Origin: a virus
IMG/VR virus record: IMGVR_UViG_3300036770_005754
Span: 112,559 to 176,558 of that record
Length of the DNA: 64,000 nucleotides
Strand: one strand, 5' to 3'
Shown here: positions 1 through 56,734 of the stretch, in pieces
Numbering within the stretch: position 1 is the first letter of the stretch
Layout of the letters: the number at the start of each line of letters is the position of its first letter
The notes under the pieces: model-generated
Database searches by the model: none
Seen by the model: only the letters and a program-made list of their open reading frames with translations
What the model was told of the DNA's origin: nothing
Position numbers and translations under genes: made by a program

Positions 1-1989
1 ATTCTGGAAAGCATAAATACCACCAGAAGTCGCTGGATTACCAATTACCGCCGCATCAAGTTCACTCGAAAAAGCAGGATCTAACGGAATACCATTAGCC
101 ATCCCGCGAAAATGTTTCGTGTTGACCTGAGAGGGCAATCTAACAGCGAAAGTAGAAGGATCATTGATGTTGTTGTTCAAGAACGCAGGGCGTTCTTCCC
201 AATTCACATAGGCATTTCCATTCATCCCACCAAGAGAGGTCCCGGGATTGATGAGATTCGCAATGTATCGAGCCTGCCTCTTATCGAAACTGACATCGTC
301 AATAGCTTCGACAGGTTGATTATTCTTATCCAAAACAGTCAAACGATAGCGACCAGCGGAATCGCCAACACCGTCGGTAAACAGTTCGAGAGTAACACTG
401 AAACCAGAAAGCCAAGTCCCAGCAGAGGGCGCGACAAGCCACCCAACCACGTTCTGGAAGTAAGCGGCATCAGCAGCACAATCCGGGCCAAACGGATCGG
501 TCTCGCAAGACAGAGGAGTGGAAGCAGTGATCTCACCAGAATCTGGTAAAACCAGCCTATTGTCGTCGAACCCGCGATACGCTCTCTTATACGGGTAAAC
601 AATATTCAATTCTTCGGCAAACCGCAAGGTCTTCAGATTCGAATAGTTAGCCATTATCTGTAGAGTATCTAATTGACGCCCAACAGATGTTTCAATAACA
701 ACGTGAGTATCCCCACTAGGAACAGTAATAGCATAAGAATTCCATAGCACGCCACCAGCGACCACACCAGCTGCATCTATTACCGCAGCAATAGACTCAG
801 TAGACTGGTTCAAGCCAATGGGAACGTTGAACGAAGCTTCCGTCGTGTTAGACTCGCCAATCAAGTTGATTTTAACACGATTGTTCTGAGTCGTGATATT
901 GTAAGGGCCAGGATCAAGACCGAGCAAGTAAGATCTTGGAATATCCCAAGCGTATTGCTCAGTACCACACTCAAGAGCCCAGCCTTGAGTAGACATCAAC
1001 TGAATACGCTCGCCTGCGACAGTACTTCTGATCTGCGGGATCGTTGAACCATCTTCCATGGTATATTCGATGAAGATATAATCTTCACTACCAAGAAGCG
1101 CATTGGCCGCAGTGATGAAAGAATCGACCGTCGTATATGTCGCGAGCGGCATCGTATAAGTCGTCGGAGACAGATTACCATCAACAGCGATCGAGAACGA
1201 ACGATTATTCGGAGCAGCACTCCAAATGAACGTATCATTCTCATCGATCTCACCTGAAGAAACAGAGATCTCCAGAGTTAGACCATCACCAATGGAAATC
1301 GCATCAGAGGTCCCGTCTCCGTTACTATCTGCAAAATAGCCCTCGGCGACTATTGAACCGTCACTATTTCTAACGACCTGATAACCAGCGCCCACAAATT
1401 GAGCATCTTCTGACAAATTGGGTGCCGATGTGATAACCATCACCCACGACTCGTCGGCGGAACCAGTGTAAACGCCAGTCAAAGTCCCAGAGGCGGATGT
1501 TGGACCATCTGTAGATGAAAGGTCAGCATCGCTATATTCCACAACACTTGTTGATGCATTATGGAAAGTGAGTGGTGTTGGGTTATTGTCGACACCGTCC
1601 CCAACAGCACGCAAATTGATTCTACCATAATCAATGCCCGTAAAGAGAGGAACTCGGCCCCACCCTTTACCACGACCACCAGATGTGTCAATACAGATAT
1701 CAGACAATTCCTGAGGCTGACCATCTTCGCATTCGACGCCCACTCTCATAACATATGCCGCGTTGCCTTCTTCAAGGTATGACAACACAGCATACATCAG
1801 ATAGCTCTCAGGGAATGGCTCCCCAAAAGTCTCTATGGCTTGCGTGGAGTTCGTGATTAAAATCGGAGTGTTCAGAGGGCCTTTCTTAGCGGTCCCAATA
1901 AACCCGGGCCGAAGCGGGCCAACGGCTGTTGGCAGTACGCTGATGTCAATTTCTCTTGGGAAAACGCCGGGGCTTAAGAACACTGTCAT
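1..1989 (-). CDS. Contractile tail sheath protein (T4 gp18-like), C-terminus outside the window
   Basis: Not in the ORF track because it runs off the edge. Hand translation from ATG 1989 gives MTVFLSPGVFPREIDISVLPTAVGPLRPGFIGTAKKGPLNTPILITNSTQAIETFGEP...YLEEGNAAYVMRV, the typical sheath N-terminus (SPGV..E.D, F.G...KGP, .VRV). GGAG RBS upstream. Confidence 0.93.
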   Translation of the reverse strand, partial: MTVFLSPGVFPREIDISVLPTAVGPLRPGFIGTAKKGPLNTPILITNSTQAIETFGEPFPESYLMYAVLSYLEEGNAAYVMRVGVECEDGQPQELSDICIDTSGGRGKGWGRVPLFTGIDYGRINLRAVGDGVDNNPTPLTFHNASTSVVEYSDADLSSTDGPTSASGTLTGVYTGSADESWVMVITSAPNLSEDAQFVGAGYQVVRNSDGSIVAEGYFADSNGDGTSDAISIGDGLTLEISVSSGEIDENDTFIWSAAPNNRSFSIAVDGNLSPTTYTMPLATYTTVDSFITAANALLGSEDYIFIEYTMEDGSTIPQIRSTVAGERIQLMSTQGWALECGTEQYAWDIPRSYLLGLDPGPYNITTQNNRVKINLIGESNTTEASFNVPIGLNQSTESIAAVIDAAGVVAGGVLWNSYAITVPSGDTHVVIETSVGRQLDTLQIMANYSNLKTLRFAEELNIVYPYKRAYRGFDDNRLVLPDSGEITASTPLSCETDPFGPDCAADAAYFQNVVGWLVAPSAGTWLSGFSVTLELFTDGVGDSAGRYRLTVLDKNNQPVEAIDDVSFDKRQARYIANLINPGTSLGGMNGNAYVNWEERPAFLNNNINDPSTFAVRLPSQVNTKHFRGMANGIPLDPAFSSELDAAVIGNPATSGGIYAFQN

Positions 1990-4739: not shown

Positions 4740-5914
4740 TGGAATTTGCCTCTGGTTGCTGTTGTGCCATCATCACTTACATTAGCTGTCGCCACTGATG
4801 TTACCGCATCATCTCTAAAGACAGTTTGTGTGTTCGAGGTCTGTGTTAGCCGATTCTTAGCGAGCATGAATAACCAGCTAATTTTATCTTTCAAGCTACT
4901 ATTTGATGCTGGGACAGATGTTGGTTCGGCACAATCATCAATTGCTATGGCACTAACAATTTGGTCTTTGACCTGTTCTGGAGTGATGGTTGCCAGTCCG
5001 AATCGAATTGCGCTTATAATGTCTGTATTGATCTCTTGAACATTGCTATCCATTCGTCCATCTATTAGAGAATCTGGTAGACGCGATTGTATATTCTGTG
5101 TGTCTTCCTCAATATCGTTCACTTGTAGTGTCGTTGCTAGACCGGCCTGAATGTCTGTGATTGTATGGACATGGCTCTGTGGCAAGATCAAAACAACATC
5201 GCCAGCCTGCGGAGCGGATGTCAGAGGATCTTCAAGTACAACGGTGACTGTCATGTCTCCGTTGTTGGTCCACGTGAGGATTGGGCTGTTCTGAAGCGCT
5301 ATGTTCGCTGTACCTTCCTCGAAGTACAAAACAGAATGCTTCATCGCACCTGTCGGGTAGTCCACTCCTGTGAGATTGAAAGTAGTTACGGTCGGTGCCG
5401 GTGAAGCAGCAACCGTACCGTCGATAGTGGCACTGGCCTTCCTAATATGATTTATCGTCCATCCGAGACTACCCGGTATCAGGTGCTGACTGATCATTTC
5501 GTCTGAAACAGCGTCGGCTATTTCGGCTGCGGTTGGTGCCCCAAATCGTGCGGTCTGATAATCGACTGCATCGAGAGCAATCAGCAAATTCACGACGGCC
5601 ATATTTGTCGCACCGCGGAATTGAAGTGCCACTTCGTTGCCACCGTCAAGTGCTGCATCCGGAATGCCGATCTCATACCAACCTGGCATGTTGGTATTAT
5701 CGACCGCGACGAACCCGCCGCTGGTCCATGTGCCGAGCGTTGCGGTTGCCAGTGTGATCTGCACCTCGTTGTTGAGGTCTCCGGCGTAGTAATAGGCCAC
5801 AAGTCCGCTGGAGTTGTACACCAGATTTGCCAGCCCGCTGCCGTCTGTTTTGCTCGTGTCGGCAATGAATATCAGCCGCCGCACTGATGTTGATCCGCGT
5901 TTGATTGGCCTCAC
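4736..5914 (-). CDS. Putative virion accessory protein (chimeric)
   Basis: 392 aa, Thr/Ala-rich; the 5' part is GC-rich and the 3' part AT-rich. Confidence 0.7.
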   Translation of the reverse strand: MRPIKRGSTSVRRLIFIADTSKTDGSGLANLVYNSSGLVAYYYAGDLNNEVQITLATATLGTWTSGGFVAVDNTNMPGWYEIGIPDAALDGGNEVALQFRGATNMAVVNLLIALDAVDYQTARFGAPTAAEIADAVSDEMISQHLIPGSLGWTINHIRKASATIDGTVAASPAPTVTTFNLTGVDYPTGAMKHSVLYFEEGTANIALQNSPILTWTNNGDMTVTVVLEDPLTSAPQAGDVVLILPQSHVHTITDIQAGLATTLQVNDIEEDTQNIQSRLPDSLIDGRMDSNVQEINTDIISAIRFGLATITPEQVKDQIVSAIAIDDCAEPTSVPASNSSLKDKISWLFMLAKNRLTQTSNTQTVFRDDAVTSVATANVSDDGTTATRGKFQ

Positions 5915-6585
5915 TGATCTACTCCTCCGCGGATGTTCACGGGGCGGAATCCGCCGCCGGATGATTTTGCGATGCCTGTGTCTTGGATTGAGCCGATAGC
6001 CCCTAGATTGCTGCTGCCGGTCGTGTAGGTTTGGCTCACGGCAGAAACAGACGCGACAGCCGCGTTTGTGTCGTGCAAGACGATTTTTGTGGCCGATGTG
6101 CCCGCTTGCACTGCCCGATTCGTGTAGCCGCTTGGGGCTGAATCAATTGTACTTGCAGGCTGATTTGTCATTGCAGCCGCCACAACCCACTGATCTGGCG
6201 TCAAAATCCCGGCAGTATCTCCCGTTGCCGGCATTGCTGGCCAACTCAGCGTCGTCCCTCCTGTTGAAGACACGCCAGTGAATCTTGCTGGTCCCATGAG
6301 GATATAATTTGCATCATCCCGATACACACCGCAAATTATAGTAACGGCGTTTGTCCACGTGCCGCTTGTTTCGGATGCCGATGCTGCAATCTTATAGGCA
6401 ACCGTCAACGATCGTCCGTTGCCGTCGAATGCATATCGGACATGCAATCTAAGCCAGCCTGTAGGTGGCGTGATTTGTGCCGTCGTGCTGGCGCAAACCA
6501 TCACCAGCAAATCGCCGGCCTGATGCGTGGGCAGCGTCAAACTGTTCGCCTCTGCAGATGCTGCACCAACGAAAGAGATCGTCAT
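5911..6585 (-). CDS. Putative beta-rich virion accessory protein
   Basis: MTISFVGA...LP..QAGDLLV...TPPTGW...AYK.A pattern, common in phage tail accessory proteins; GC-rich. Confidence 0.65.
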   Translation of the reverse strand: MTISFVGAASAEANSLTLPTHQAGDLLVMVCASTTAQITPPTGWLRLHVRYAFDGNGRSLTVAYKIAASASETSGTWTNAVTIICGVYRDDANYILMGPARFTGVSSTGGTTLSWPAMPATGDTAGILTPDQWVVAAAMTNQPASTIDSAPSGYTNRAVQAGTSATKIVLHDTNAAVASVSAVSQTYTTGSSNLGAIGSIQDTGIAKSSGGGFRPVNIRGGVDQ

Positions 6586-20871: not shown

Positions 20872-21687
20872 CTAAATCCTATTCGCCCTAGTAATAGTAT
20901 GATAATATCTAACAGGCCTAGGACCATATAAACTATGATCACCAGGACCGTAAACACCAGACGACTGATAATGCAAAAAAGCAGTAGTCAAAATCGGCTT
21001 GCCCCTATAGGCCAAGTATAAAGCAATCAGCCTCTCAAAAACATGCGGAGTCCAAAAACCAATATCAGTCAACCGCAGCTTACTAATAATATTATATAAC
21101 CTATTACCAAGATAATCAAAAGTAGCACGAGAACACGCGAATTGATGCGAATAAATCATATTAGGCTGAGTATCCATAGCCCACTCATAAATCTCACCAT
21201 CATACTTCTTGATAATATCCCAGACAAAAATCTCATTATCAAAACAATGAATCATATACGGATCATACTTAGGTATCAAATGAGCATCAGTAGGTACAAA
21301 CCAATCTTCCCATAAACCACCATAGGCAACAGGAATAGTCAAAGCGATAGAAGAATGAGGATCGGCGTCCAAAGAATCATTCAACCTCCTCCAAGTCTCA
21401 CCGGCCTTGAAATGCAAATCAATATCGGAATGCATAATAGCCACATGATTGTCGCCAATTAGCTCATTAGCATGCTCCCAAATGGTCAAAATAACCGAGG
21501 ATTCAAATAACGCAGAATTCCAGGAAGCATAAGTCGGATAAAAATCACCAGCCTCAGACAAATCAGAACTTTTATTCTTAGTCACACCACATGAAATCCT
21601 CCTGCTATCAACGAGCTTAGAATTGAAAGCCCTCTTAGGCAACAAATCAGCAGATTGCGGATGTAGCAAAACAAAAGATTTAATCAT
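20872..21687 (-). CDS. Putative GT-A-fold glycosyltransferase-like protein
   Basis: HVAIMHSD, F.C....F..., FERL.ALY; neighbours are GTs. Confidence 0.5.
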   Translation of the reverse strand: MIKSFVLLHPQSADLLPKRAFNSKLVDSRRISCGVTKNKSSDLSEAGDFYPTYASWNSALFESSVILTIWEHANELIGDNHVAIMHSDIDLHFKAGETWRRLNDSLDADPHSSIALTIPVAYGGLWEDWFVPTDAHLIPKYDPYMIHCFDNEIFVWDIIKKYDGEIYEWAMDTQPNMIYSHQFACSRATFDYLGNRLYNIISKLRLTDIGFWTPHVFERLIALYLAYRGKPILTTAFLHYQSSGVYGPGDHSLYGPRPVRYYHTITRANRI

Positions 21688-28423: not shown

Positions 28424-28835
28424 TCACTCTCCTATGCAAAATATCTAAATCATAGGTCTTCACACGACCTTTCCTAATCAGTTCATATACAACATGAAAA
28501 CACGTTGCTAATCTATGCGAAACAAAAGTAATTATTAACCAATTTACAATGCTGTAATTAGTAGTGCTTGCGATTACAGGGAAAGCTGAAGGAAGTATGA
28601 ACAAAGACAAGAAACCAGCCACCCAGACACTTGTACAATAACCGCAAGATATAAGCTTATCAAACCAAACCAATAGTGCTTGTAACCAGTTATCTTTTGG
28701 TGGCCCGTCTATTGGGTATATTGATTTCTTGATAAAATCTCGAAATGGTCTCATTATCTCAGACGAGGTGATAATTTCCGAAATTGCTTCAACTGCGACT
28801 GACATCAACAATATTGCGATGATTTCAGCAATCAT
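28344..28835 (-). CDS. DUF1360-like membrane protein
   Basis: Hydrophobic segments with LISCGYCTSVWVA. Confidence 0.7.
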   Translation of the reverse strand: MIAEIIAILLMSVAVEAISEIITSSEIMRPFRDFIKKSIYPIDGPPKDNWLQALLVWFDKLISCGYCTSVWVAGFLSLFILPSAFPVIASTTNYSIVNWLIITFVSHRLATCFHVVYELIRKGRVKTYDLDILHRRVIDGGAGASTSERRSEVESGDFETSAG

Positions 28836-29083
28836 TTAACTATCAGCCTGCAGTTCGGGTTGGAGCATTGGAATCTTTCTCTACCAGCAATATTTACAGT
28901 CATGATCACGTACCCACATTTAGTGCACTTCTTGCCAGAAGAGATATGCTGTCTAGAAGCAATTACTTGACGATTCTGATTACCAGTAGGTGCGGACTGT
29001 TTCCGAGCAGCACGAGATTGCCGCGGCTCTTTACGTTCTATCGTTTGTTTTCTAATCTGCCGTCTACCGCCACCGCAACACAT
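28832..29083 (-). CDS. Small basic Cys-rich / zinc-ribbon protein
   Basis: MCCGGG start after GAGG; C-terminal CTKC...CSNPNC. Confidence 0.7.
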   Translation of the reverse strand: MCCGGGRRQIRKQTIERKEPRQSRAARKQSAPTGNQNRQVIASRQHISSGKKCTKCGYVIMTVNIAGRERFQCSNPNCRLIVK

Positions 29084-29087
29084 ATTA

Positions 29088-29249
29088 TTACCTCTTATCA
29101 AGGTGATTTGCAGGGCGAATCTTGCGGTTAGTAACCGCCCGGGGTCTCAACGGTATGACCTGTCTGAGAACTATCGCAGAGGGCCTAGGGCCCTGACTCG
29201 ATCGTTCGACTCTGATAGATGCAGAATTACCACACGAATTACAAGCCAT
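29088..29249 (-). CDS. Small basic Cys-motif protein (53 aa), below the ORF-track cutoff
   Basis: GGAGG RBS; MACNSCGNSASIRVERSSQGPRPSAIVLRQVIPLRPRAVTNRKIRPANHLDKR. Confidence 0.7.
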   Translation of the reverse strand: MACNSCGNSASIRVERSSQGPRPSAIVLRQVIPLRPRAVTNRKIRPANHLDKR

Positions 29250-43696: not shown

Positions 43697-44168
43697 CAGG
43701 CTTTGTGAATTGTTTTGTAGACGGGCTCAGGTCAATGTGTCCAGACCGTTTATTTTCGAAAACTCTGGTAACGAAGTGTATGATGCGTCTTGGTGTGGTT
43801 TGGCGCGTGGCTGACGCATTCACACCTTCAGGGATTAATATCTGACCGGCTTTTATTTGTCTGGCTAGATCATGTAAATTATTATGATATGTTTCACCAA
43901 GATACATTCGATGCGTGCCAAGAACAAATAAATTCCATCCTATAATAGCTTTTCCTTGAGACATGTCTAATTCTTCGACATGTGGAACTACTTCAACTTT
44001 TGACGCAAGGGCCGGGACGACCATCGGGAGGTCTTGTATCAATGATGGATATAATTGACGATCAAAAGATTCAGTGAATCCTTTATCCATGAAATATTTA
44101 ATCAAAAGTCTGCGAACTACTTCTAGGTTCGCTCTTTGTTTCATTCTATCAATATCGTATGAATCCAT
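43620..44168 (-). CDS. Hypothetical protein
   Basis: 182-aa ORF. Confidence 0.75.
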   Translation of the reverse strand: MDSYDIDRMKQRANLEVVRRLLIKYFMDKGFTESFDRQLYPSLIQDLPMVVPALASKVEVVPHVEELDMSQGKAIIGWNLFVLGTHRMYLGETYHNNLHDLARQIKAGQILIPEGVNASATRQTTPRRIIHFVTRVFENKRSGHIDLSPSTKQFTKPGEPYKAKSSLMGMPQQFFTRSGYGT

Positions 44169-45355
44169 TAGTATTCCTCTTCATCTTCAATATATTCCTC
44201 AACTTCATCTATCAACTCTCTGAGTTCTTCTTTTATATTTTCTACGCTTGAATCTGAGTGTACTGCTTCGATCGTCCTGCTCAAAAGATCATGTATGAAG
44301 TTAGGGTCTCTCTTGGCTATCTTTGCGATTGTCTCCGCTAGCCTTGAATGTTCTGGAACGATTTTAAGGAAGCTCGTCCACAAGTGTGGGCCGATTTGGA
44401 TTAACCATGGCTCATCTGTTGTTTTGTCAGCGACTCTTAAGACTTTCTTCAGTTGCCCCTTCGACAAATGGGATAGACCATGGTGCGATAGTAATTCCAT
44501 AACGCCTTTAACTAGTTCTTGTATCAGAACTGGGAATATCATGGCTTGAGCTACAATTGTCGGTCGATCTTCATCGTCATATTCTACATTAGATGTGCCA
44601 ACTGCGGCACCAGCAAGGTTAGCGAGCGATGAATAATCCATTAACCAATATGTGTGTTCTGTGCCGGAGCTTAACTTATCATAAGCTTCTAATAATTGCG
44701 GGTCTAGAGCTTTCAATTCTGATTCGACGAATCTGTGCATCGTCATCATATTGTGGACGGCTGCTCCTTGCGTGAGAGCGTTCATGGTTATTCGTTTATT
44801 AATCTCACTGATATCGACGTCTTCCTCGTCTTCTTCATCATCATTATGATCTAGAGATACATTTTGTGTCAACCTTGCATCAAGAATATCTCTTGGAACG
44901 TTCCATATTTTGCTGACTACGTCTTTCGCTATTTCTTCTAGTTGTTTGGCATATCGGCTTTCTATTCGCATTATTTTGTGCATTATTTGATATGCACCGC
45001 CGCCGATGCTGTTCATGTCATATGCTTGTAAACCTGGAAATGTTTTTCTTACGCGTTCAGCACTGGTTTGGAATGCTCTCTGAGCTGATTCATGGCCGTA
45101 CATCGCCATAATAGGGTGTTTTGAGTACGGATGTGGTTGTTTTCTGATATCTTTCCAAAATCTTACTACGTTTTGGTGAGCTTCGTCGTCAAATGCTTCG
45201 GCGATTCTTTTCTTCCTTGCTTTTGGACGCGGGGCTTCTTTTGGTCTTGGTGGTGCGAAAGGATCGAAAGTCGGCTTTGGTTTTGGTTTCACCGGCGTAG
45301 GTGTTACCGGTTTTGTGGGTGCGGTAGTTGTGCCAGCTATTTCTCGTAGTTTCAT
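44168..45355 (-). CDS. Hypothetical protein, possibly a head/internal protein
   Basis: 395 aa; MKLREI start, Pro/Lys-rich N-terminus. Confidence 0.75.
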   Translation of the reverse strand: MKLREIAGTTTAPTKPVTPTPVKPKPKPTFDPFAPPRPKEAPRPKARKKRIAEAFDDEAHQNVVRFWKDIRKQPHPYSKHPIMAMYGHESAQRAFQTSAERVRKTFPGLQAYDMNSIGGGAYQIMHKIMRIESRYAKQLEEIAKDVVSKIWNVPRDILDARLTQNVSLDHNDDEEDEEDVDISEINKRITMNALTQGAAVHNMMTMHRFVESELKALDPQLLEAYDKLSSGTEHTYWLMDYSSLANLAGAAVGTSNVEYDDEDRPTIVAQAMIFPVLIQELVKGVMELLSHHGLSHLSKGQLKKVLRVADKTTDEPWLIQIGPHLWTSFLKIVPEHSRLAETIAKIAKRDPNFIHDLLSRTIEAVHSDSSVENIKEELRELIDEVEEYIEDEEEY

Positions 45356-45401
45356 TCGGTCACCCGTAATTAATTTGCGAAGTTATAATAAATTTTCCTG
45401 A

Positions 45402-45611
45402 TCAATGACTCCCGTTTAAATATTCATCGATTTGGGTTCGCAATTTTAATATCATTTCTATACATGGCTCTGACATAACTTGATATATTTTTTCGTTCTT
45501 TGGTAGTATGTCTCTACGTAATGATCCTAGTGCTAATTCAGCCCTGATTAACTGTTCACGTACGACTTTCAATTCTTCATTGTTTCCGATCGTGTCTCGA
45601 ATTTCTTTCAT
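45402..45611 (-). CDS. Hypothetical protein
   Basis: 69-aa helical ORF. Confidence 0.55.
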   Translation of the reverse strand: MKEIRDTIGNNEELKVVREQLIRAELALGSLRRDILPKNEKIYQVMSEPCIEMILKLRTQIDEYLNGSH

Positions 45612-45669
45612 TCTAGTGGCCTTACTAATGTAAGTTAGTAATCTTAACTATTCTAGTTTAATTTTTGGA

Positions 45670-46337
45670 TAGGGTTTGGCTCCCCCCATACAAGGAGATA
45701 TTTGCGACAAAAGAAAATCGCGAACATCAACTCATATGATCTTGGTGACGACAGCGTGTCGCCCCATCCACGACATCAAGGCAAGCTCCAACACGAACCA
45801 ATTTCAGGGGGAAGCTGTGTGTTGGTCGAAACCTTTTGCCATTCTCCTACCCACGTCGCACTCCCGCCAAGGAGGCCGTACACTCTACCAGTTTTGGTGC
45901 CTTAGGAGATTCGAGTTACCTGAGATAACATCACTTACTGTCAGTCCATCAGCTTCGTCTAGGCTACGAATGATTTGAAATTTTTGGTTGCCAAATGGCG
46001 TTAACATCGAAGATTTTTCTTAATCCTAGACCCACTGCAGTAAAACTGAGTGATATCAGATTGGCATCCCAGGCATGTGGTACCTCAACCGTCGGGCTTG
46101 AGCTTCTTCTCTCCTTAAAACGCCCCTGTATTTCTTTTAGGCTCCAACATCATGTTGAAAACCAGCTACAGCAGGTGACCCGTACGCTTTTCGCCTTCGT
46201 GATCCGCACCCACCAAATGATGGATGGCAAGAATACTTAAGAACCAACTGTAGCCGATTGAGGGTTAACATTGCAGGAAGTAGCAAACAACGCTACTATG
46301 TCCGATCACAAGGACCGGGCGGCTCTGATCAACCGCT
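45670..46337 (-). ncRNA. Candidate large structured non-coding RNA of unknown class (~670 nt)
   Basis: Gap without a credible CDS; many stems with G-U wobbles that work only on the minus strand; GTATT motif just upstream. Confidence 0.65.
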
Positions 46338-46340
46338 AAA

Positions 46341-46351
46341 ATATAAATACT
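46341..46351 (-). promoter_or_regulatory. Candidate promoter (AGTATTTATAT) upstream of the ncRNA
   Basis: GTATT(T/G) recurs upstream of genes at 36522, 47476, 48204, 58517, 58623, 59768 and 63661; GTATTA upstream of 42940. Confidence 0.4.
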
Positions 46352-46372
46352 AAGAAAGAGAAACAAACAACA

Positions 46373-47476
46373 TCAAAACTCACTAGACTCAATAACATAC
46401 AACTCATCACCCTCATGCATTACCTCATCATTGCACCTATTCAAAATAGCAATATCAAGATCCTTAATATTCTTTGAATCACGCTCAACCCAAACCATAA
46501 ACAAATTATGATGCAAAGCAGGAGAAGGGCCCTCCAAAATCTTCTCAGCATCAGGCTCCTTCTTAGGCTTCATCTCCATTAGCCTAACATCCTTGGCACC
46601 CCTCTTAAGTAATTCCTGCTTAAGAACAGCTTTCTCATCATTGGTAAAATCTCGATCCAAAGCGATTCTAACCATCGCCCCAGAGACATCAGCCGACTTC
46701 ACAGACTCATCAGAAATAGTAGTGAATTGTGGAGGCTGAGGAACGTCAGGAAAATAACGTGACCCAGCCTTCCAAATATTCACGAATTTATGGTTTGACG
46801 CCTCAATATCATAAACATAAAAACCATGCGGAACGTCTCCCTCATCAAACTTGAAAGGGATCGGAGAACCAGGATACCAAACATTTTCGCCAACTTGTTG
46901 CTTGCTATGAAAATGGCCAGTATAAACTCTCTTGAATGTAGAGTATTCAAAAGTCACACTGGACCAGTCCTTAAGCAAGAAGCAAGTGTTGAGTGTGGCA
47001 CTCCGAACGCCTATATGAGTTAATAAAATGTCTTCATTGGGTCTATATTTTTCATGTTCCATGATGGCCCTAACGACTCTCATATATGCCTTTTCATAAG
47101 TTATGAATGGCAAGATCCAAAACTGCTGATTATCGATATCCAATAATTTGACATCTTCGATTACAGTCAGATGTTTCTTCAAAGGTGTCAGACTATTGAC
47201 TCCCCAAGAATGCCTCAAGAACATGTCATGATTACCAGGGAATACTATCCAATTTTGGCCGTATTTCTCTTTTGTTTCCTCAAAAAATCTTGCAACTTGC
47301 GAATTCACATCGATTTCAATCGCCTGCCTATTATGATAGAGATCACCTAGAACAAACATCACATCAATCTCATGTTCCGCACAATATTCACGCATTACGC
47401 GACAGGCCCAAAGTATATCATCAGTACGCCCGGGCACACCAAAATGAATATCAGCAGTAATTCCGACGCACGTCAT
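46373..47476 (-). CDS. sbcD: Mre11/SbcD-like nuclease (gp47-like)
   Basis: ADIHFG, LGDLYH, PGNHD, GHFH, YPGSP. Confidence 0.92.
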   Translation of the reverse strand: MTCVGITADIHFGVPGRTDDILWACRVMREYCAEHEIDVMFVLGDLYHNRQAIEIDVNSQVARFFEETKEKYGQNWIVFPGNHDMFLRHSWGVNSLTPLKKHLTVIEDVKLLDIDNQQFWILPFITYEKAYMRVVRAIMEHEKYRPNEDILLTHIGVRSATLNTCFLLKDWSSVTFEYSTFKRVYTGHFHSKQQVGENVWYPGSPIPFKFDEGDVPHGFYVYDIEASNHKFVNIWKAGSRYFPDVPQPPQFTTISDESVKSADVSGAMVRIALDRDFTNDEKAVLKQELLKRGAKDVRLMEMKPKKEPDAEKILEGPSPALHHNLFMVWVERDSKNIKDLDIAILNRCNDEVMHEGDELYVIESSEF

Positions 47477-48203: not shown

Positions 48204-48401
48204 ATGCCACGATATAGAGTCAGCGGAACAGTAATAGCTTCAAAATATCTCGGAGAATTTGAGGCCGATACCGAAGAGGAGGCTATCGAAATGGCACTTA
48301 GCAGTGAAAATGCTTACGTAAGCCTGTGCCATCAATGTTCTGGCGAATGTGAAAACCCAGAAATTCACGATGCGAACGCGGAACCGATCGATGAAGAATA
48401 A
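48204..48401 (+). CDS. Small acidic Cys-containing protein, tandem copy 1
   Basis: MPRYRVSGTVIASKYLGEFEA..EEEAIEMA...CHQC. Confidence 0.75.
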   Translation: MPRYRVSGTVIASKYLGEFEADTEEEAIEMALSSENAYVSLCHQCSGECENPEIHDANAEPIDEE

Positions 48402-48435
48402 TCGCTGGTTAATCCGCTGTTTGGAGAAATACGAA

Positions 48436-48672
48436 ATGCCACGATACAGAGTCAGCGGAACAGTAATCAGCGGAGCAATAATTGCTTCAAAATATCTTGG
48501 AGAATTTGAGGTTGGCACCGAGGAGGAGGCCATCGAAATGGCACTTAGCAGTGAAAATGCTTACTTAAGGCACGCTAGAATATTGATAGCACAGACGGAT
48601 TTTTGTGACTGCTGCGGAATTCATGATGCGAGTGCGGAACTGATTGAGGAATCTATCGAGCAGCCTCAGTAG
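48436..48672 (+). CDS. Small acidic Cys-containing protein, tandem copy 2
   Basis: Near-identical start; GGAG RBS before ATG 48436. Confidence 0.7.
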   Translation: MPRYRVSGTVISGAIIASKYLGEFEVGTEEEAIEMALSSENAYLRHARILIAQTDFCDCCGIHDASAELIEESIEQPQ

Positions 48673-55546: not shown

Positions 55547-56734
55547 TCAAGAGAAATCGTCATCTTCGTCATCTGTGTTTTCGACATTTGCGTATTTTTC
55601 GACGTGCTTTTTAGCATATCTTTCGCCTAATACTGATTGCATGAGCCATTCGATTATATATCCAGTTATTTTTCGATAGTCTCGTATTGGACAATTAACA
55701 ACAATTGTGTTTTCATATTCATCCGTTAAATATAAATCCCCATCTTCTATAGCCCCAACAATGGTGCTGTTTGCTTTTTCTTGTTTGATTAATGGTATGT
55801 TTTCACCATCGACTGAGAATTCTGGTTTTGGACCGCCCAAGTGAAACCATCGGACAAGTCCGTCACCAAATATATTGCCTTGCAATCTATGTAGATTTTG
55901 AGATTCAATAGGTCCCTTTGTCCAGCCGCCGGTCGCCCGCCTCGGTTCATAGAAAGTTCCGTGTATGCTGACCTCGATGGTCTTTTCATCCGCTATGGCT
56001 CTAAAGTTACCATACCTAATGGCCGCACGACGTAAAGATGTGGCCAGCAATTTTGTGTCTGGTACTCTTGAGCGTTCCATTCCGATGAAAGAACTGTTTC
56101 TTATAGCTTGTCTAACTTGTCCGGATGCATACTTTGCTAATTGAGCAGGATTTGCGTTATCGCGATAGTTCAGTGCTTCTGATAGCCACGCTCGTTCGTC
56201 CAGAAATTCTATAATTTCACCGTCATGATGCAGCATATTCATCAGCCGATCTACTGCGATGATCTTATCATGAAGTGTGTTCGAGTCTGCAGCTTTCACT
56301 ATTTCGGTCGCAATGCCTCTCCAAGTGTCTTCAGCAAAGTGCCCGTCGATTTTGTTCTCAGTTATGTATAGAAGAAGTTTTATTCTTTCATACAATGGTA
56401 CTCTTTTTACAATGACTGATTGTTCTTCCTCTATATCTTGACCTGGCAGTGTATCTGAATTATTTAAATAGACATCATCCAATTGTTGTAGTATCGGTAA
56501 CCATACTCTAGCAAGATTTTTATCGCTAATCGACTCTATGTTCGAAAATCTCAAAACGCAAATACTTGATAGTTGGTTTAAAAGATCTTCCCAAACATAG
56601 TTAACATAGAATCGTGTAAGTCTTTTGATATCTTGATCATTGTTGTTGCTAAGATCAGAGCTGGCATATAATAACGAATACAAATCAAAGAAATCTCGAC
56701 GACTGAACGCTTCATTAATACTTGATAATCTCAT
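55547..56734 (-). CDS. Hypothetical protein, possibly a head/internal protein
   Basis: 395 aa; MRLSSINEA start. Confidence 0.75.
   Translation of the reverse strand: MRLSSINEAFSRRDFFDLYSLLYASSDLSNNNDQDIKRLTRFYVNYVWEDLLNQLSSICVLRFSNIESISDKNLARVWLPILQQLDDVYLNNSDTLPGQDIEEEQSVIVKRVPLYERIKLLLYITENKIDGHFAEDTWRGIATEIVKAADSNTLHDKIIAVDRLMNMLHHDGEIIEFLDERAWLSEALNYRDNANPAQLAKYASGQVRQAIRNSSFIGMERSRVPDTKLLATSLRRAAIRYGNFRAIADEKTIEVSIHGTFYEPRRATGGWTKGPIESQNLHRLQGNIFGDGLVRWFHLGGPKPEFSVDGENIPLIKQEKANSTIVGAIEDGDLYLTDEYENTIVVNCPIRDYRKITGYIIEWLMQSVLGERYAKKHVEKYANVENTDDEDDDFS

Follow-up and report, generated by a model that had tools for sequence, protein, structure and literature searches.

A large RNA of predicted multi-pseudoknot fold, outside the Rfam 15 classes, in a clade of giant T4-like phages

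The sequence analysed here, called the window, is a 64,000-nt stretch of the IMG/VR record IMGVR_UViG_3300036770_005754 (G000), a T4-like myophage of 176,558 nt that is ~49% complete and whose proteins include gp23, the portal, the tail tube, gp32, and UvsY. An initial annotation had flagged a minus-strand stretch next to an Mre11-like gene as a candidate large structured RNA. The locus comprises the following features:

45402-45611, minus strand: 69-aa ORF on the other side of the gap, from the ORF list
45670..46337, minus strand: the stretch flagged in the initial annotation
45680..46337, minus strand: RNA body, predicted at ~660 nt with both ends predicted; homolog profile matches span the interval
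46344..46350, minus strand: GTATTTA, a predicted promoter (-10-like) of a replication-phase class, conserved in homologs and enriched before genes
46373..47476, minus strand: gp47/Mre11-like nuclease gene (Pfam PF00149), the usual upstream neighbour, outside the RNA

The flagged stretch lies downstream of the Mre11-like gene, as described, with the Mre11 stop at 46373, and it begins just after a GTATT, which starts at 46350. It had also been called the only long gene-free stretch. It is the longest gap in the window (761 nt, from 46373 to 45611; four others span 283–457 nt), but genome-wide G000 contains further gaps of 898 and 680 nt. Those two ORF-poor gaps (C1 82599-83496 and 59946-60625, GC 37–40%, outside the window) hold no copy of the RNA. 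At 48.2% the stretch is GC-richer than the window's four other gaps above 250 nt (36.8–42.2%). One contig of run X4 aligns only to 45731-46351 and diverges past 46351, which argues that the element is a conserved island.

The record has other features of note. On the plus strand at 48204-48672 of the window, a neighbouring ORF pair repeats a nearly identical 40-residue stretch, a local duplication. Many proteins start with an MKL..I..E-type leader (window 44168-45355 and 55547-56734; G000 C1 22877-25482, 41128-43439, and 103123-106944), one family in at least six copies; by analogy to T4 biology we take this leader to be possibly capsid-targeting. G000 also encodes a B12-dependent ribonucleotide reductase and a cobalamin adenosyltransferase (L263:12176-14374 and L262:11213-11758), and a Planctomycete-cytochrome-like gene (L259:858-1706, E 2e-4) gives a weak hint of the host, atlas leads being sub-threshold only.

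All ten stems listed in the initial annotation were found on the minus strand at the following starts:

Stems 1–5, minus strand, sequence check: 46336/46324, 46315/46303, 46297/46285, 46257/46172, 46226/46214
Stems 6–10, minus strand, sequence check: 46159/46148, 45825/45794, 45775 or 45753/45761, 45728+45721/45708+45702, 45697/45685

Folding each strand separately gave a minimum free energy (MFE) of -224.7 kcal/mol for the minus strand (z -2.5, with 0/20 shuffles as good), and the plus strand folded no better than shuffles (z 0.05). When 16 homologs were folded singly with eight shuffles each, the sense MFE was lower in all 16 and the sense z in only 11. That many imperfect pairs are G-U on the minus strand and would be A-C on the other had been read as favouring RNA, and this reading holds across the family: the modelled helices of 24 homologs contain 171 G-U cells versus 34 A-C cells, G-U pairs having been permitted when the helices were picked, and the excess argues that the RNA strand is the minus strand. 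Neither of the plus-strand ORFs that the gap contains, of 100 and 81 aa, matches Pfam, and both have 1-nt indels in close relatives, contigs of three other runs (at 45708, 45923, 45977, and 46014).

Homologs were collected from gp47-adjacent regions, as the initial annotation had suggested. We aligned 42 gp47 relatives and fetched 48 viral loci, and relatives of the RNA were recovered downstream of gp47 in several. Conserved-core patterns were then run against collections of viral, metagenomic, and GTDB sequences, where the majority of what they picked up was coding DNA matched by chance. A profile confirmed 67 loci representing 33 distinct sequences, and a covariance model of the core added four, giving 37 distinct relatives of the window RNA. 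No homolog came from an initial viral scan anchored on proteins, and two further viral patterns yielded, besides re-finds, only L483, which is close to a known member. In GTDB a single pattern matched exactly 24 times, and neither HMM nor covariance model confirmed any of these, though diverged cellular copies may have escaped the one pattern; blastn gave three matches of 25–28 nt and then none in GenBank phages, and one match of 37 nt in plasmids. In the jumbo phage RaK2 the core model recovers nothing, its first-pass filter yielding 0 candidates, although it does recover the G001 control; a remote relative there may have been missed. The 32 full-length copies (the window and 31 others, two partial copies left out) share a mean identity of 49% (minimum 39%), and the family ranges from ~470 to 780 nt, the window copy being ~660 nt.

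Exactly one copy is present in 16 of the 48 records: all 13 with a gp47 of 50% or more identity to that of the window, plus three at 41%. None of the remaining 32 records (gp47 36–48% identical), five of which are 99–100% complete, has an RNA match, and divergence may account for this. Identities of the RNA and gp47 correlate across 12 genomes (Spearman 0.73; 0/5,000 permutations), which fits the prediction of vertical inheritance. The RNA behaves as a single-copy core gene, inherited vertically with gp47, in a clade of giant T4-like environmental phages of 350–400 kb. Eight genes are present in four carriers yet missing from three non-carriers, and the two examined follow the clade rather than the RNA specifically. 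A 271-aa clade-marker protein is encoded at 20875-21687 of the window (minus strand); its G001 relative has no Pfam match, and the atlas groups it with viral hypothetical proteins. In the non-carrier L028, the region after gp47 (5440-6170) contains, by eye, an apparent tRNA array in place of the RNA.

Neither the window nor 11 homolog loci contain a match to Rfam 15 at the gathering threshold, and in E-value mode only short chance matches appear in the window (E up to 10) and eight homologs (E up to 5). The initial annotation saw no RNase P, tmRNA, or group I/II core, and the corresponding Rfam models indeed return nothing for the window and its homologs. For RNase P, RF00010 was found in 0/5 carrier records at E up to 1, and the 5′ end of the RNA forms local hairpins rather than a P4 with the 3′ region; an RNase P RNA was rejected. 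A group I or II intron was rejected likewise: at the loci examined, intact ORFs flank the element, and a reverse transcriptase (PF00078) was found in 0/5 carrier records, one of them complete. No reverse transcriptase domain occurs among 161 scanned proteins of G000 (itself ~49% complete). The candidates that depend on this enzyme (retron, DRT, DGR, and telomerase-like RNAs) were dropped because it was not found in the five carrier records.

To describe the fold, 77 pairs were named on an alignment that kept 24 of 34 sequences and left out near-duplicates, partial copies, and three hard-to-align members. From 5′ to 3′, the predicted parts in window coordinates are:

46279..46336, minus strand: three 5′ hairpins, H1 (46336-46319), optional H1b (46315-46300), and H2 (46297-46279)
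46263-46256 with 46090-46083, minus strand: long-range helix P2b, enclosing pseudoknot 1 (MI-APC ranks 5, 27, 32, 43, 59)
46128..46255, minus strand: pseudoknot 1, H-type, made of stems P3 and K, from covariation
46255-46247 with 46172-46164, minus strand: P3 (8/8 pairs doubly changed, 93.8% paired)
46245-46238, minus strand: U-rich loop of pseudoknot 1 (motif in 27/33 sequences)
46236-46229 with the A-rich strand 46137-46128, minus strand: K (5/7 pairs doubly changed, 85.7% paired)
46159-46143, minus strand: hairpin H4, inserted in pseudoknot 1 beside variable hairpins, from the model
46074-46066 with 45926-45918, minus strand: helix C (4/5 pairs doubly changed; MI-APC ranks 8, 20, 30, 35 extend it)
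46049-46043 with 45947-45941, minus strand: helix A, nested in C, around the linker (6/7 pairs doubly changed, 98.2% paired)
45948..46042, minus strand: variable linker closed by a short helix, from length and indel comparison
45940-45938 with 45891-45889, minus strand: pseudoknot 2 (B), joining helix A to the core loop (3 pairs, 24/24 paired)
45774..45917, minus strand: conserved core with helices D, E, F, G, H, and I
45914-45911 with 45829-45826, minus strand: D, invariant in the 24 aligned members
45909-45903 with 45849-45843, minus strand: E (6/6 pairs doubly changed)
45900-45897 with 45883-45880, minus strand: F (3/4 pairs doubly changed)
45876-45858, minus strand: hairpin G (5/6 pairs doubly changed)
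45835-45832 with 45781-45778, minus strand: H, which crosses D as pseudoknot 3 (4/4 pairs doubly changed)
45825-45819 with 45794-45788, minus strand: I (4/6 pairs doubly changed)
45814-45807 with 45687-45680, minus strand: pseudoknot 4 (J), the C-rich loop of I with the 3′-terminal G-run, from a swap test

Covariation, on which the proposal of a structured RNA had been made to hinge, is present. Canonical pairs occupy 93.4% of the cells of the model and 58 of the 77 pairs show changes on both sides; 0/500 shuffles match any of its measures and partners slid by 1–3 columns pair in 37–48%, the helices having been picked from the data on which they were scored. Among all 135,460 column pairs ranked by assumption-free MI-APC, 29 of the top 30 are canonical in at least 83% of sequences, and this ranking exposed one more long-range helix, P2b. 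RNAalifold applied to the core returned 31 pairs, 26 with double changes. The modelled fold comprises ~15 helices and four pseudoknots, together with a variable A-rich linker and the 150-nt core. We regard this as almost certainly a real structured RNA gene, and the initial claim of a large structured RNA belonging to a class outside Rfam 15 is supported by the homologs, covariation, strand bias, and gene context.

The helices differ in how they vary. H1 shows double changes in 4/4 pairs (100% paired) and H2 in 4/5 (95%), and H1b is missing from several homologs. The five central pairs of P2b are canonical in 22–24 of 24 sequences, and 46263:46083 holds in the window, not family-wide. In B, one pair changes from G-C to A-U in 4/24 sequences and a fourth pair is kept in only 12/24. 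In the diverged members L137 and L280, inspection by eye shows a compensatory change in helix D. Window position 46268 covaries non-canonically with 45870 and 45864 (helix P2 versus the closing pair of hairpin G); this may reflect a tetraloop-receptor contact, the G loop being GNRA-like in some members, or could stem from shared ancestry.

The A-rich motif of stem K occurs in 30/33 sequences, and a swap test of this stem gave p 3e-5 (n=23) on a crude extraction with several segments mis-picked. From the model alone, we predict a U.A-U triple helix in pseudoknot 1, formed by the U-rich loop and the A-rich stem. U.A-U triples are a feature of the telomerase-type H-pseudoknot. There and in the pseudoknotted DRT2 RNA, as here, a U-rich loop crosses an A-rich stem; however, the RNA described here has no template gap before the stem, and its five carrier records have no reverse transcriptase.

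Toward the 3′ end, variable hairpins and a U-rich stretch separate the core from J. For J, each loop and its own tail form duplexes with a mean of -18.7 kcal/mol versus -14.7 kcal/mol for swapped partners (0/100,000 permutations, n=27), and J is 79% paired in the unadjusted alignment. A CUCCUU/GGGGAG stem noted initially can be drawn in the window (45697/45685), but across homologs the 3′ G-run pairs with the distant C-rich loop instead. A search of 45300-46600 found no intrinsic minus-strand terminator, and the 3′ end may therefore arise by processing or owe its protection to J. In most homologs a TATA/GTATTT-like word stands ~8–10 nt beyond the G-run; weak in the window (~45670), it is probably the promoter of the following gene.

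The 150-nt core contains 30 positions that at least 30 of 31 sequences share, 17 of which the model leaves unpaired, and pseudoknots B and D/H converge on these. Such a pattern raises the possibility of a new ribozyme class, in which the RNA would have its active site in the invariant core among D, E, F, G, B, and H and would act in trans on phage or host RNA or mature its own 3′ end. The lack of an intrinsic terminator and the single copy in 13/13 close clade members agree with this proposal, whereas purely structural cores also contain invariant unpaired bases, the RNA interrupts no gene, no Rfam ribozyme matches the window (E up to 10) or eight homologs (E up to 5), and no substrate-like or guide complementarity to the phage's own genome was found in G000, G001, G005, or G010. 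We consider a catalyst unlikely; if it were one, a single-copy core gene expressed during DNA replication would build an active site from the ~30 invariant bases, a version that we rate as just as doubtful. A guide or antisense role was rejected because the RNA has no match elsewhere in its own genome in the same four records.

The linker is the least constrained part of the RNA. It measures 49–209 nt, is often A-rich, and has no conserved sequence or reading frame; close kin differ by 1–2-nt indels, as in run X2, which carries a 1-nt insertion at 45977. In G010, the linker contains a 9-nt tandem repeat of ~16 units located at contig ends (L008:5417-5567 and L275:1-130), where the copy number may be an assembly effect. 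In tmRNA, four pseudoknots and a long-range helix surround a single-stranded A-rich loop. Since four pseudoknots surround a single-stranded A-rich loop in the present model too, the RNA could be a highly diverged or permuted tmRNA-like molecule whose linker codes for a degradation tag, and four related members (the window, L171, L175, and L184) have a Lys-rich short frame that ends in VA or AA before a stop. However, tag frames and stops are not conserved family-wide, the CCA-like triplet is CCG in many members and lies inside helix F, no T-arm can form, and SmpB is found in 0/5 carrier records. ARAGORN finds no tmRNA in the window or loci, and RF00023 exceeds its cut-off in 0/5 records, with nothing at the place of the RNA. 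In contrast to tmRNA (RF00023 and permuted families), the RNA thus has no tRNA-like domain, conserved CCA, conserved tag frame, or SmpB; the permuted-tmRNA reading with its tag ORF was dropped on the grounds of frame, stop, T-arm, and SmpB, and a tmRNA relative of any kind appears highly improbable. The non-carrier G040 has, in one 20-kb stretch, a canonical tmRNA of ~380 nt with a tag ending in FAA; none was found in four carriers.

Upstream of the RNA, GTATTTA is exact in 24/31 homologs, 1–8 nt before the first hairpin, and the other seven have one-letter or shifted variants. The 7-mer by itself is not enriched before G000 genes (1/165). The relaxed motif GTATTT[AT] is enriched within 100 nt upstream of G000 genes (9 vs 3.2) and before genes in 5/7 other records (G001, 18 vs 6.5; G010, 20 vs 7.1; G024, 34 vs 7.4; G025, 41 vs 10.7; G040, 20 vs 5.9), and is barely enriched in G011 and G005. 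In G001 and G010, 12 of the 37 genes behind it have named PHROG matches, none of them structural: gp46/SbcC, dUTPase, DNA polymerase, helicase, a DHH phosphoesterase, a sigma factor, a regulator, and five HNH/Mom-like genes. Because these are replication and regulatory rather than structural genes, the motif may mark a replication-phase promoter, and GTATTTA reads best as a promoter element outside the RNA. The sigma factor of RNA polymerase preceded by GTATTT[AT] is encoded in G010 (L381:8312-9319; phrog_351, E 3e-31).

Another motif, CAAANATA, stands before genes for the tail tube, the sheath, and tail-fibre-like and head-decoration-like proteins (4/9 named genes, among 34). YAAANATA, a promoter-like motif of G000, G001, G005, G010, G011, G024, G025, and G040, sits mostly 25–50 nt upstream of structural genes (in G000, 33 occurrences against 5.8 expected) and is likely the late promoter of the clade. 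We rejected the idea that the reverse complement of GTATTTA is a T4-type late promoter, as the structural-gene motif is YAAANATA and in 5/7 records the enrichment of GTATTT[AT] is stronger in the sense orientation than in the reverse complement, which is somewhat enriched too.

The flanking genes vary. The nearest upstream ORF is gp47 in 11/34 loci and divergent in 12/34; downstream, the closest ORF is a member of a single large-protein family in 12/34 loci and convergent in 8/34. Three loci (L011, L070, and L160) have a divergent ORF upstream and a convergent one downstream, some of these ORF calls being short and uncertain. The varied orientation points to a stand-alone gene. The recurrence of gp47 before the RNA and of the large-protein family after it, together with a nearby GC-skew switch in three records, could instead be explained by a cis element, i.e. 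a giant leader, a 3′ UTR, an origin, or an R-loop primer beside the recombination genes. This is very unlikely, as the downstream genes vary or converge, the upstream ones often diverge, the skew switch tracks gene orientation, and the G-U over A-C bias indicates one folded strand. A riboswitch or cis-regulatory leader does not fit the downstream ORF counts, and a replication origin was rejected on the GC skew, which follows the gene strand. No tRNA gene occurs in any of the 36 loci with flanks of up to ~1.5 kb, ARAGORN finds none in the window, and no RNA-binding gene is consistently adjacent to the RNA in 34 loci.

A partner outside the immediate neighbourhood might be sought in the following gene:

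28832-29101 of the window, minus strand: basic protein of 89 aa (relatives 85–90) with Cys pairs at both ends and no assigned family

It is present in 15/17 carrier records and 0/5 complete non-carriers (20/49 records overall), and would suit an RNA that is a component of an RNP or a decoy, binding a conserved machine (ribosome, RNA polymerase, or phage protein) in the replication phase, with the A-rich linker as an mRNA-like bait. However, the protein also occurs in five fragmentary records without an RNA match, and co-occurrence within a clade is expected anyway; it is a partner candidate at the clade level only. The linker contains a weak motif, WWUG(G/C)C, in 15/27 members versus 6.1 in shuffles (maximum 12 of 400), a pattern picked after looking. 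The 3′ G-run looks like a ribosome-binding site and the C-rich loop like the complement of one, yet the distance to the downstream start codon varies, or that codon is on the other strand. Pull-downs show GOLLD bound by ribosomes, according to PMC12286853. We hold an RNP component or decoy to be rather unlikely.

The explanation that we favour, with a probability of roughly 40%, is by analogy a ROOL/GOLLD-like structural scaffold that folds by itself and assembles into oligomers. The RNA would be its own transcript, starting ~6–7 nt after GTATTTA at a replication-phase promoter and depending on the kind of sigma factor, phage-encoded or the host's, that also serves gp46, DNA polymerase, and helicase. 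J would lock and protect the 3′ end, a role suggested by the failure to find an intrinsic terminator there. Among the short long-range pairings B, J, and K, at least one may join separate molecules instead of forming within one, the unconstrained A-rich linker would be disordered and exposed, holding or presenting a protein or RNA partner, and the invariant unpaired bases of the core would serve in packing the tertiary fold or in binding a conserved host machine. In PMC12286853, a covarying 'tertiary' kissing loop of ROOL turned out to be intermolecular, and its disordered, non-conserved linker lies inside the cage.

A scaffold is favoured by the covariation, by a linker that tolerates indels and a tandem repeat and lacks a conserved sequence or frame, by the stand-alone gene context and promoter class, and by the absence of reverse transcriptase and SmpB from the five carrier records and of a consistently adjacent RNA-binding gene. 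It is weakened by the failure to find a conserved self-complementary loop. The palindrome GUUAAC, which had been proposed to support kissing contacts, does not hold up as a family feature: GTTAAC occurs in only 8/34 sequences, and twice only in the window (46269 and 46005). The missing tRNA neighbourhood and the core-gene presence, unlike in ROOL and GOLLD, also weaken it, and the 30 near-invariant bases fit a catalytic or ligand-binding site at least as well.

To our knowledge, only a handful of structured RNAs this large exist in bacteria and phages, and those with known functions are catalysts or parts of central machines. A literature search, with most subscription papers outside its coverage, found no description of this family. 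The csRNA candidates in PMC10690425 measure 29–151 nt, and its four supplementary files other than the alignment archives contain no motif or contig match; a fragment of the RNA may be listed among these candidates.

The closest comparisons are ROOL (RF03087) and GOLLD (RF02032). As described in PMC5737381 and PMC12286853, ROOL is phage-borne, ~500–700 nt long, and built of multistem junctions and pseudoknots with a non-conserved internal linker, and likewise has no known protein partner. In contrast, its model matches neither the window nor the 11 homolog loci at the gathering threshold, nor eight loci at E up to 5; a single-family ROOL search was also empty, and its controls gave no match anywhere. 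PMC5737381 counts 10 highly conserved bases in the whole ROOL RNA, whereas the RNA described here has ~3 times as many near-invariant bases (30) in its 150-nt core. GOLLD resembles it in being a large phage RNA of aquatic metagenomes with a conserved 3′ region and a variable 5′ region and linker (PMC12286853), yet the model of the conserved GOLLD 3′ domain has no match in the homologs or in G000 (E up to 10), the controls of the G000 search giving weak matches in 5/14 genomes and none over the cut-off. The promoter predicted here is of the replication phase and not, as for GOLLD, of the lysis phase. Both ROOL and GOLLD often lie near tRNA islands (PMC12286853); the present family has no tRNA neighbours in 36/36 loci and is single-copy in every close clade member tested (13/13).

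The models thus support, as far as they can tell, a separate class that is not a relative of GOLLD or ROOL, matches nothing in Rfam 15, and, unlike both, is a single-copy core gene inherited with replication genes. With a covariation-backed model and natural sizes of ~470–780 nt, in vitro tests for cages or catalysis are feasible now, and a result either way would inform what large ornate phage RNAs do. With its large multi-junction pseudoknotted fold, as modelled, and its variable linker, this previously uncatalogued RNA is alike in kind to GOLLD and ROOL and a member of neither.
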